Below, in pieces: positions 20,301-20,846 of a stretch of 21,929 bases of DNA. The stretch comes from a virus. The translations under genes were made by a program, and so were the position numbers. The DNA is taken from IMG/VR virus record IMGVR_UViG_3300013232_000807; one strand, written 5' to 3'. Under the pieces are notes generated by a model that was not told the DNA's origin, made no database searches, and saw only the letters and a program-made list of their open reading frames with translations. The number at the start of each line of letters is the position of its first letter. The stretch's first letter is position 1.

Positions 20301-20846
20301 GTGGCCCGGAAGAAGCACCGCGGCGGGTACAGCTCCTCGTGGATCCACCCGGTCACGCGCCTGGCCATCTACCTGCGGGATGGGCTGGGCTGCGTGTACT
20401 GCATGAGGGACTGGAGCCGCTCGGACGGGATGACGCTCGACCACCTCCACCCGCGGGGGATGAAGCTGTCCCCCATGGCGTTCGGTGTGTCCCTGAACGA
20501 CCCAACCAACTTGGTGACTTCGTGCCGCCGGTGTAACAACCTCCGGCGGCACATCCGGGCCTCTCCGCTGTTCGGCGCAGACGAGTGGAGGAACCTCGCG
20601 ATCGCGCTGCACGTAGACGAGGACCTGCGTCTTCGTGCGTTCACGTACGCACGCGTACCGCTCGGCTGCACGTTTAGGGACCGCGCGCGCAGTCTGCATC
20701 GTGACCCGCCTCAGTGGCTCCGTGACATGCGCCAGCTCTCCACGACGCTTCCTGGGGACCACCGCGTTCGTGCAGAGGAGATGGAAGCCCCGCACGAGAT
20801 GCAGGTACTGCTGCCATCCGCAGATGACACCGACATCCCATTCTAA
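20301..20846 (+). CDS. HNH endonuclease with C-terminal SSB-tail-like DDTDIPF
   Basis: GTG start immediately after the upstream TAG. GGAGGAG upstream. HNH motif CVYC...LDHLHPRG...NLVTSCRRCNNLR. The last residues are ...LLPSADDTDIPF. Confidence 0.8.
   Translation: MARKKHRGGYSSSWIHPVTRLAIYLRDGLGCVYCMRDWSRSDGMTLDHLHPRGMKLSPMAFGVSLNDPTNLVTSCRRCNNLRRHIRASPLFGADEWRNLAIALHVDEDLRLRAFTYARVPLGCTFRDRARSLHRDPPQWLRDMRQLSTTLPGDHRVRAEEMEAPHEMQVLLPSADDTDIPF

Follow-up and report, generated by a model that had tools for sequence, protein, structure and literature searches.

Introduction

Bacterial genome maintenance has its central docking peptide in the C-terminal tip of SSB (SSB-Ct), against which antibiotics are being sought. 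This tip is usually regarded as a property of SSB itself, and T7 gp4, a helicase-primase and as such a non-SSB protein, bears an SSB-like tail. Motif mimicry is well documented among eukaryotic viruses; in the open-access full-text literature we found neither a phage nuclease, HNH or other, described as bearing an SSB-Ct tail nor a report of phage short-linear-motif mimicry of this kind. The SSB-Ct hexapeptide reads DDDIPF (PMC5872125) and the mycobacterial SSB tail ends in ...GGGDDEPPF (PMC7847540), so that the tips are ...DDDIPF in E. coli, ...DDEPPF in mycobacteria and ...DDDLPF in Firmicutes (PMC5872125, PMC7847540, PMC5143411).

An acidic docking tail with an essential terminal Phe has its phage precedent in the T7 replisome, in gp2.5 and gp4; for gp2.5 the function of tail and Phe has been described (PMC12339929). 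The T7 tails exceed the tip reported here in length and, by far, in acidity, lack Pro-Phe and bind the phage's own polymerase; moreover, the T7 SSB bears the tail, whereas the SSBs of the phage group studied here have no tip.

Small phage HNH proteins of the type RLAIYLRD...CxYC...DH...N...CxxCN (PF01844/PF14279) share the core, the zinc and catalytic residues and the helical domain with its PxW motif with the protein analysed here, but most of them (~110-150 aa) stop soon after the helical domain, typically with ...RRGGFxAAL. The clade described below differs from them by an added linker and SSB-Ct-like tip and by its setting in a replication module. As to gene order, the free-standing HNH homing endonuclease gene mobA of T4 lies between genes 39 and 60. 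Our locus resembles it in that a small HNH gene adjoins the gene of a phage type II topoisomerase subunit; the divergence of the HNH gene is also incongruent with that of its flanks, which could stem from exchange between phages or from fast evolution. Unlike in T4, the topoisomerase gene is unsplit and none of the related contigs examined has the HNH gene elsewhere or lacks it, and, unlike topoisomerase-adjacent homing endonucleases, some members of the clade have no GyrB neighbour.

Results

An HNH nuclease with an SSB-Ct-like C-terminus

The window, i.e. the whole stretch of 21,929 nucleotides analysed here (IMG/VR virus record IMGVR_UViG_3300013232_000807), encodes an HNH protein of 181 residues whose C-terminus reads ...EMQVLLPSADDTDIPF (translation of 20301..20846; Table 1). 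With a GC3 of 0.83 the open reading frame is typical for coding sequence in a window of 67% GC, and in the alignment the homologues share the start position of the window protein, supporting the GTG start. Pfam HNH (PF01844) matches residues 31-81 with 27.1 bits (cutoff 21.4) and ten PHROG HNH families match the protein, which has the features of the beta-beta-alpha-metal fold, with C31, C34, C75 and C78 as Zn ligands and D47, H48, N70 and N79 as catalytic residues. In alignment A1 D47, H48, N70, N79, C31, C34 and C75 are invariant and C78 is nearly so. The catalytic residues are thus intact, as judged from the sequence, and the DNA cleavage or nicking activity is putative. Structural relatives are the Gme HNH nickase (4h9d) and the HNH protein of phage GVE2 (5h0o).

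Table 1. Features of the window that are discussed in the text
Feature	Position	Strand	Details	Basis
HNH endonuclease gene	20301..20846	+	GTG start, TAA stop 20844-20846, 181 aa	ORF list, sequence
HNH beta-beta-alpha-metal core	20391..20543	+	residues 31-81	
Helical C-terminal domain	20547..20810	+	residues 83-170, includes invariant W139	
Disordered linker and acidic tip	20811..20843	+	residues 171-181, LPSADDTDIPF	
SSB-Ct-like heptapeptide DDTDIPF	20823-20843	+		
HNH C-terminal tail peptide, terminal F included			LLPSADDTDIPF	
Phage SSB (OB fold)	7648..8035	+	gene separate from HNH	Pfam SSB 9.6e-14
GyrB/ParE-like type IIA topoisomerase B subunit	18092..20002	+	636 aa, upstream neighbour	
Small conserved protein	20013..20300	+	~95 aa, between GyrB and HNH	
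Downstream protein, phrog_6186	20860..21714	+	284 aa	PHROG 1.4e-22

In the AF2 model the domain that follows the core is helical (helices H76-87 to H165-170, pLDDT 79-92); it is common to the tail-less broader family, its PPxWL motif being also present in the tail-less proteins P0175 and P0028. The pLDDT block means then fall to 60 and 46 for residues 171-181, indicating that the tail is disordered, with a linker of ~10 residues and D175, D176 and D178 as the acidic residues of the tip. The body has a pI of 10.3 (27 K+R vs 16 D+E), and the last 21 residues contain five acidic and no basic ones.

The original prediction had likened DDTDIPF to the SSB C-terminal tip, and this likeness is borne out, as position, acidic run and I-P-F all match the consensus. 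HNH tip and SSB-Ct have in common the location at the extreme C-terminus, the invariant Pro-Phe, a hydrophobic residue or Pro at position -3, the acidic run from -4 to -7 and a linker that is disordered and differs in length among proteins. Whereas the SSB tip extends from the OB-fold core of a tetramer, the one reported here extends from the helical domain of an HNH nuclease, the HNH protein giving no match to the SSB profile in Pfam (PF00436), and in the window protein it has a short linker.

The tip is conserved in one HNH clade

The seven homologues closest to the window protein (41-99% identity) all end in acidic-x-[I/V/P]-P-F, as do 16 of the 17 best-scoring cluster representatives from a library of 1.84 billion proteins. 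Altogether 24 of 157 HNH-family proteins carry the tip (7 homologues from the first search and 150 library representatives), and it is also found on the further clade members P0159, P0160, P0162 and P0163. By construction the library representatives are <50% identical to one another, implying that the tailed clade is not one recent sequence cluster. The ending [D/E]-rich-x-[I/V/P]-P-F is kept in homologues down to ~35% identity, and the original prediction thereby survives its own check, in which homologues lacking an acidic-IPF end would have spoken for chance. P0008, a member of the clade, and P0161, a near relative, lack the tip, and it is weakly acidic in P0106 (...RAKIPF), P0122 (...AAAPF) and P0155 (...TSVPF).

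Alignment A3, comprising 22 sequences with a mean column identity of 31%, has six invariant columns only, H48, C75, N79, W139, P180 and F181, i.e. the terminal Pro-Phe is as invariant as the catalytic His48, and the linker between body and tip ranges from ~3 to ~60 residues with zero conserved columns. The 23 non-redundant tails have the consensus D-D-[E/D]-[E/D]-I-P-F, with F and P in 23/23 each, I, V or P at position -3 in 20/23 (I 13, V 4, P 3) and an acidic residue at -4 in 17/23 (E 10, D 7). Acidic residues occupy -5 in 11, -6 in 14 and -7 in 11 of these tails, and farther upstream the sequences look random. This consensus equals the SSB-Ct hexapeptide DDDIPF, with E. coli, mycobacterial and Firmicutes tips as references; the PPF variants have their counterpart in the SSB tail of mycobacteria. 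The last ten residues have on average 2.4 more acidic than basic residues in the 24 tailed sequences; in the tail-less relatives basic residues exceed acidic ones by 0.5.

The codons for Pro, Ile and Phe, the stop codons and the downstream DNA vary across the loci, which argues for selection on the peptide rather than on the DNA or a ribosome-binding site. A constraint on the tail codons by a ribosome-binding site or an overlapping gene is excluded by the same variation, including that of synonymous codons. We also rejected a beta-clamp-binding motif of the QL[S/D]LF type, as the tail has no Gln/Leu pattern but is acidic with an invariant Pro-Phe.

Comparable termini are rare elsewhere

A crude census of 7512 open reading frames of at least 60 aa (87 loci and the window) yielded 25 that end in PF, 15 of them with at least two acidic residues in the six preceding positions. 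Five of these 15 belong to the tailed HNH clade and three are SSBs, so the background of such termini is ~0.1-0.2% of open reading frames, many being SSBs. A family of 298-313-aa proteins in three of the loci (L005, L006, L034) ends in PDED[T/E]IPF.

Among the HNH proteins of the broader family the PF terminus was found in 0/80 complete open reading frames from 82 IMG/VR and GTDB relatives and in 2/75 metagenome relatives among the matches listed, which are broad-family HNHs from which the close clade is absent; over three collections 2 of ~155 complete open reading frames have a PF end. On the sequences compared, the tip is specific to one HNH clade and almost absent from the broader family.

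The tailed HNH genes belong to replication modules

The product of the upstream gene matches HATPase_c, DNA_gyraseB, Toprim and DNA_gyraseB_C in Pfam and is 57-77% identical to the protein encoded upstream of the tailed HNHs in L001, L002, L085, L086, L090 and L173; an exact-sequence look-up of the window GyrB returned no record. The HNH gene had been placed immediately 3' of the topoisomerase gene, but the small open reading frame listed in Table 1 intervenes, its stop codon abutting the HNH start codon. Homologues of this small protein occupy the equivalent position in L001, L085, L086 and L173, and it has no sequence match in Pfam, PHROG, NCBIfam or the PDB. The downstream protein is 41-63% identical to the products of the downstream genes in L001, L002, L085 and L173 and has no sequence match in Pfam, NCBIfam or the PDB. 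A single-sequence AF2 model of this 284-aa protein had a pLDDT of 35.8 and was unusable.

The block of GyrB-like protein, small protein, HNH and phrog_6186 is conserved in seven related contig lineages. The HNH gene is thus not a sporadic, free-standing insert but, contrary to the earlier description as free-standing, a fixed part of this block, occupying one and the same post-GyrB position in 7/7 related lineages, all of which were recovered through the HNH itself. GyrB-linked tailed HNHs are those of the window, L001, L002, L085, L086, L090 and L173-175. In two distant tailed members the HNH gene adjoins that of a DnaC/IstB-like AAA+ protein (L176) or lies near that of a UvrD-like helicase (L089). 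Tailed HNH genes are always in a DNA-replication context. No phage-encoded neighbour is common to all tailed loci, whose GC content ranges from 51 to 73%, and this fits a universal, host-encoded reader of the tip. For broad-family HNHs, where linkage to terminase was sought, the neighbours were heterogeneous (a collagen-like protein, PolA, an AAA+ protein, a portal-like DUF4055 protein and DUF5131).

Comparison with the window gave identities for GyrB and HNH of 77% vs 39% in L173, 71% vs 57% in L001 and 63% vs 63% in L085. An HNH gene diverging much faster than its flanks may have a less constrained role or may have been exchanged between phages.

Searches for relatives beyond these loci returned little. 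A tblastn search with the HNH protein against 50,697 phage records gave zero matches at 1e-5, and P0013, a more typical clade member, matched 662 phage records by tblastn, none of which covered the C-terminal part. The sole match of the whole window in megablast was a Nextera adapter. Concerning the host, tblastn with the endolysin of the window gave no match, the downstream protein gave weak partial tblastn matches (26-29%) to Ruegeria and Caulobacter phages that are uninformative, and a scan of GTDB genomes yielded two tail-less relatives only, both in MAGs, and no prophage copy pointing to a host.

The SSBs of the phage group have no tip

The G5 run at 7972-7976 has one G too many, which shifts the reading frame of the phage SSB. 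After correction the protein ends in ...WIGGVSSAPDLGEPPPFDFGDPE with the stop codon at 8033-8035, and a homologous SSB with 87% identity (P0012) reads ...WIDGVSSVPDLGEPPLDETPFPEEGS, supporting the correction. The corrected tail, ...GEPPPFDFGDPE, is without a terminal IPF. The original prediction that the phage's own SSB lacks the tip therefore stands for the corrected frame and for two further SSBs of the group, but the annotated frame from which it had been drawn (7648..8052) is a frameshift artefact. The three SSBs in the phage group end in ...FDFGDPE, ...PFPEEGS and ...PPIPEEP, and the HNH tip is thus not simply a tail common to the phage's own replisome proteins.

Discussion

Distant phage relatives retain the tip, which is therefore probably no coincidence but a functional docking tag that the virus has borrowed. 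On the pattern of conservation we lean, if modestly, towards an SSB-Ct-type docking motif that would couple the phage nuclease to enzymes reading the SSB tip. The terminal Phe and the free carboxylate of the tip would be inserted into the SSB-Ct pocket of one or several genome-maintenance enzymes, which would most probably be encoded by the host; candidates among the usual partners of SSB are exonucleases, helicases of the RecQ/PriA/RecG type, the chi subunit of the clamp loader and primase. This coupling might either carry the nuclease to sites of replication or recombination or bring the enzymes to the site that it has nicked or broken, and host SSB would incidentally face competition from the tip for these pockets. 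That SSB-Ct pockets would be bound at all, who would own them and what the biological outcome would be is what we infer from these comparisons. There being one tail per nuclease, binding would be expected to be weak compared with tetrameric SSB, which speaks against docking, as do the absence of the tip from P0008 and P0161, the weakly acidic tips of P0106, P0122 and P0155 and the fast divergence of the HNH gene relative to its flanks.

The tip might instead serve the phage's own replisome as the T7 tails do, docking on the phage polymerase, the helicase or the GyrB-like topoisomerase with no involvement of host SSB partners. In line with this, the gene is always part of a phage replication module, with tight linkage to GyrB in seven contig lineages; nevertheless we consider it unlikely, since the SSBs of the group are without the tip, whereas in T7 SSB and helicase share theirs, and since distant tailed members have neither GyrB nor another phage neighbour in common. 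Moreover, the invariant I/V/P-P-F is the signature of bacterial SSB-Ct and not of the T7 type, and only 5 of 21 residues at the C-terminal end are acidic.

The acidic tail could also act as an autoinhibitory DNA mimic that folds onto the very basic body and occludes the DNA-binding face until released by a partner or substrate. SSB-Ct acts in this way on the OB fold, and similar behaviour is known for the acidic tails of gp2.5 of T7 and gp32 of T4. The opposite charges of body (pI 10.3) and last 21 residues (five acidic, none basic) and the flexible linker are in line with such a mechanism, but mimicry of charge alone leaves the invariant Pro-Phe and the hydrophobic residue at -3 unexplained, conservation is lower at the acidic positions, linkers of ~3 residues as in P0098 and P0106 are hardly long enough to reach the active site, and the AF2 model shows no confident docked pose. 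As the explanation of the tip autoinhibition is therefore improbable, although as a second function it is compatible with docking.

Another route had been suggested originally, namely that the tip binds the OB fold of the host or phage SSB and thereby brings the nuclease to SSB-coated ssDNA. Nuclease and SSB genes lie in the same replication module, and the tip-less phage SSBs would leave any tip-binding surface unoccupied. The tip of E. coli SSB, however, binds the OB fold weakly and in competition with ssDNA, so that SSB would shed the tip just when it is bound to ssDNA. We thus regard OB-fold targeting as very unlikely and as the least likely of the routes proposed at the outset.

There is also little reason to expect a degradation tag, in which a host protease, e.g. 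ClpXP, would recognise the C-terminal [I/L/V]-P-F and the nuclease would be short-lived. In Streptococcus mutans LPF, the three C-terminal residues of SsbA, is sufficient for ClpXP-dependent degradation of GFP (PMC5143411), and the SSB tail activates mycobacterial ClpX (PMC7847540). Recognition varies, however, with the strain and does not occur in E. coli or in other streptococci (PMC5143411), i.e. it is not a general property. The S. mutans degron needs no upstream acidic residues, yet these are conserved here, and the restriction of the tip to one HNH clade of replication modules would be left unexplained.

Finally, a functionless chance resemblance on a mobile homing endonuclease, for which the incongruent HNH and GyrB identities (L173, L085) and hence nuclease exchange between phages could be cited, is close to refuted by the Pro-Phe that is invariant in 23 non-redundant sequences at ~31% mean column identity with an unconstrained linker, by tail codons that vary between loci, by the low background of such termini (~0.1-0.2% of open reading frames) and by the distribution of the gene, which is not sporadic, since each of the related contigs examined has it at this locus.

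Building on docking to host enzymes, one may speculate, and we do so tentatively as we hold it to be possible rather than likely, that a lineage of uncultured phages moved the universal SSB hub peptide from SSB onto a nuclease, commandeering host helicases, exonucleases or the restart primosome at the nicks introduced by it, with the tip-less phage SSB keeping host enzymes off phage ssDNA. On this reading the clade would exemplify viral mimicry, through a short linear motif, of the bacterial SSB interactome, in which phages copy the SSB tip to plug enzymes into the network of host SSB partners or to compete with it. The same trick may serve other phage proteins, e.g. the PDED[T/E]IPF family (L005, L006, L034), and the tip would offer a clue to what the small HNH proteins of phages do, a family that is very large and uncharacterised.

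The HNH endonuclease and its C-terminal tip

Translation of the ORF confirmed the original prediction of an HNH endonuclease with an SSB-like end (Table). Pfam PF01844 matched above threshold on residues 31-81, and the zinc ligands C31, C34, C75 and C78 as well as the catalytic residues D47, H48, N70 and N79 are conserved in homologue alignments. By sequence, the clade profile matches Cas9/IscB HNH domains and 4h9d, and the AlphaFold2 model has a pLDDT of 80.5. Every feature that can be assessed from sequence or model is that of an HNH superfamily member; that the protein is itself an SSB was rejected. 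An HNH copy on a 1550-bp JGI contig (P0001), 99% identical to that of the window, carries Tyr in place of the zinc ligand Cys78; this reflects a sequencing error or else an inactivated variant.

Table. Features of the HNH protein, the window and related loci
Feature	Position	Strand	Description
HNH endonuclease gene	20301..20846	+	GTG start, TAA stop, 181 aa, C-terminus ...PSADDTDIPF
HNH N-terminus	residues 1-9		disordered, basic
HNH core	residues 31-81
HNH helical domain	residues 83-170		pLDDT 79-92; also present in tail-less family
HNH C-terminus	residues 171-181		low model confidence, treated as disordered; terminates in tip
Phage-type gene set	window		SSB, dCMP deaminase, VanY/PG-binding endolysin, GyrB/ParE-like topoisomerase subunit, 868-aa MVP-shoulder/Band-7 protein
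GyrB/ParE-like subunit	18092-20002	+	full-length
MVP/Band-7 protein	13413-16019	+	868 aa
Arg-run ORF	10068-10403	+	111 aa
Mrr_cat-like protein	10435-11922	+	495 aa
Adapter and index	21884-21929
PDED[T/E]IPF family	L005 12880-13821; L006 12808-13749; L034 11327-12223		298-313 aa
Small protein, P0004 contig	L001 12932-13180		82 aa

Of 11 relatives from a first homology search, the seven that lie closest, at 41-99% identity, share a C-terminus in which x-P-F comes after an acidic stretch (DDTDIPF, SNDDIPF, SEEKIPF, AGEDPPF, NDEEIPF, GEGEFPF and EEEPPF). An exhaustive profile search over 1.84 billion cluster representatives, less than 50% identical to one another, gave nine further top matches (P0013-P0021) ending in ETIPF, KDIPF, DEIPF, FETPF, ADIPF, QEVPF, ADVPF, MEVPF and DEIPF, and lower-ranked tailed matches including P0034 (...DDDDDIPF) and P0033 (...DDEDIPF). 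The tail is present in 16 of the 17 best-scoring proteins of this search and in 24 of 157 HNH-family proteins fetched by that stage. The idea of an SSB-type tip, which homologues lacking an acidic-IPF terminus would contradict, thus survived the inspection of homologues for an acidic-PF end.

Counts anchored at the C-terminus over 23 non-redundant tails gave Phe at position -1 and Pro at position -2 throughout (23/23 each), Ile in 13, Val in 4 and Pro in 3 at position -3, and Glu in 10 and Asp in 7 at position -4, positions -5 to -7 being mostly acidic with no pattern further upstream. In a 22-sequence alignment with a mean column identity of only 31% six columns are invariant, namely catalytic His48, Cys75, Asn79, Trp139, Pro180 and Phe181, and the linker from the last conserved helix to the tip ranges from ~3 to ~60 residues. 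Different loci use different codons for Pro, Ile and Phe, and they also differ in stop codon and downstream DNA; the constraint therefore acts on the peptide.

Of the 82 broader-family relatives obtained from IMG/VR and GTDB, 80 have a complete HNH ORF, and not one of these terminates in PF; among the matches listed, 2 of 75 broader-family relatives from JGI metagenomes do. Tail-less HNHs of the broader family end shortly beyond the helical domain. A crude census over all fetched DNA covered 7512 ORFs; in 15 of them a terminal PF follows at least two acidic residues, five of the 15 belonging to the tailed HNH clade and three being bona fide SSBs. On these counts the tail is specific to this HNH clade and more than chance, and it is very probably a selected, functional motif.

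Resemblance to the SSB C-terminus

The published SSB-Ct hexapeptide is DDDIPF (PMC5872125), mycobacterial SSB ends in ...GGGDDEPPF (PMC7847540) and streptococcal SsbA in DDDLPF (PMC5143411). Compared with bacterial SSB tails, the IPF and PPF variants of the HNH clade lie inside the natural range, and the layout, in which a flexible linker joins a folded DNA-binding body to an acidic I-P-F-COOH tip, corresponds to the C-terminal half of a bacterial SSB. Judged by sequence, the tail qualifies in all respects as an SSB-Ct motif, with pocket binding being putative.

A second non-SSB phage protein family has the SSB-Ct-like end PDED[T/E]IPF; it matches phrog_22961 (unknown function) weakly and no Pfam family. 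This second occurrence suggests that other phage proteins may also borrow the tip. The phage contig of the tailed HNH P0004 also encodes a small protein without family match, whose C-terminus is ...GSDEEPPSDMPF.

The original prediction had also stated that the phage SSB lacks this tip. This holds, as there is no terminal IPF even after correction, but the frame used for the claim (7648..8052, ...GGGVLRTGPGG...RLHA) is, from the comparison with its homologue, a frameshift artefact due to one extra G, be it an assembly error or a real mutation. The homologue P0012 (87% identical) continues ...WIDGVSSVPDLGEPPLDETPFPEEGS, and removal of one G from the G5 run at 7972-7976 gives ...WIGGVSSAPDLGEPPPFDFGDPE with a stop at 8033-8035. 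The corrected C-terminus ...GEPPPFDFGDPE is supported by P0012, and in our own reading of the sequence GC3 is also higher in its frame. In the related contig L173 the SSB ends in ...EEPPIPEEP; the tails of three SSBs of this phage group are thus short, acidic and rich in proline, with no terminal I-P-F. By this comparison the canonical tip sits on the nuclease in these phages, not on the SSB.

Genomic context

Although described as free-standing, the HNH gene proved not to be a stray insert, having a fixed place in a conserved block: the order GyrB-like subunit, small conserved protein, tailed HNH and phrog_6186 protein is kept in the window and in loci L001, L002, L085, L086 and L173-175, and in L090, a contig of 51% GC, the HNH comes immediately after GyrB. 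Along its whole length L173 is closely related to the window phage (GyrB 77%, downstream protein 63%, endolysin 48% identity); its HNH is only 39% identical to that of the window, with the tip kept (...PDDSEIPF; L173 7447-11458 vs window 18092-21714). Identities of GyrB and HNH to the window are 71% vs 57% for L001 and 63% vs 63% for L085. As these ratios differ between loci, the nuclease may be fast-evolving or exchanged between phages at a fixed locus, and in these alignments the tip survives whichever way the HNH diverged.

In more distantly related tailed members GyrB is missing from the neighbourhood, and the surroundings are still replication genes, with a DnaC/IstB-like AAA+ protein adjoining the HNH in L176 and a UvrD-like helicase near it in L089. 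P0008, the one clade member without the tail, also lacks a GyrB neighbour. No phage gene was found that accompanies the tailed HNH in every fetched locus. The behaviour does not fit a sporadic homing endonuclease, the test being weak as the loci were recovered via the HNH itself. Neither the 22-kb window nor 20 kb around the L173 homologue of the phage-encoded GyrB-like subunit (L173 1-20528) contains a recognisable GyrA/ParC-like partner; it may be encoded in another part of the genome, or a host A subunit may take its place.

The window has a GC content of 67%, with all genes on the plus strand according to GC3 analysis, and phage record searches found no close cultured relative. Its last 46 bases are a Nextera transposase adapter (CTGTCTCTTATACACATCTGACGCTGCCGACGA) plus index, the adapter being the sole megablast match of the window among phage records. 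The contig end is a library artefact, so that the 3' ends of ORFs reaching into the adapter (e.g. 21545..21904) are spurious. The protein with major-vault-protein 'shoulder' and SPFH/Band-7 domains, unusual for a phage replication and lysis region, has relatives in the phage collection only in the uncultured huge phages LR756500, LR756501 and LR756503 (36-38% identity). The ORF with a terminal Arg run (...RRRRRRRRKTS; 78% identical in L173) forms the most conserved gene pair between window and L173, and the protein encoded after it matches Mrr_cat (restriction-endonuclease-like) weakly, at E 7.7e-4 and just under the Pfam cutoff.

Discussion

In the open-access full-text literature we found no account of an SSB-Ct tip on a nuclease or on any family of non-SSB phage proteins; a known nuclease fold and a known docking peptide are combined here in a new conserved arrangement. 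With tip conservation, protein architecture and genomic context established, we lean modestly towards the tail being an SSB-Ct-type ligand for SSB-partner proteins, both binding and partner being inferred. On this best-supported reading, the tip would be an SSB-Ct-type docking motif whose terminal Phe and carboxylate would enter the pocket of the usual readers of the SSB tip, linking the nuclease to helicases, exonucleases or replisome parts of the host and, as a by-product, competing with host SSB. A host-encoded reader is favoured because the tip matches the universal bacterial consensus, because the clade spans phages of 51-73% GC and because no phage-encoded partner is conserved alongside the tailed HNH.

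Alternatively, the tail could dock on a phage replisome protein in a T7-like manner; the linkage of HNH to GyrB agrees with this, but the phage SSBs carry no tip and some clade members have no GyrB, and we regard it as unlikely. Autoinhibition of the nuclease by a DNA-mimicking tail would suit the charge pattern of a strongly basic body (pI 10.3) with an acidic end (last 21 residues); it is nonetheless distinctly improbable given the invariant Pro-Phe and the very short linkers of some members. Docking of the tip on the SSB OB fold deserves even less weight, as binding of the SSB tip there is weak and displaced by ssDNA. That the tip is a ClpXP degron is most improbable: LPF does act in this way in certain strains of S. 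mutans, but E. coli and other streptococci show no such effect (PMC5143411). Chance resemblance is effectively excluded.

If the tail is an SSB-Ct-type docking motif, the purposes that we infer as possible for the nuclease are breakdown of host DNA, nick-primed replication or recombination, or its own spread.
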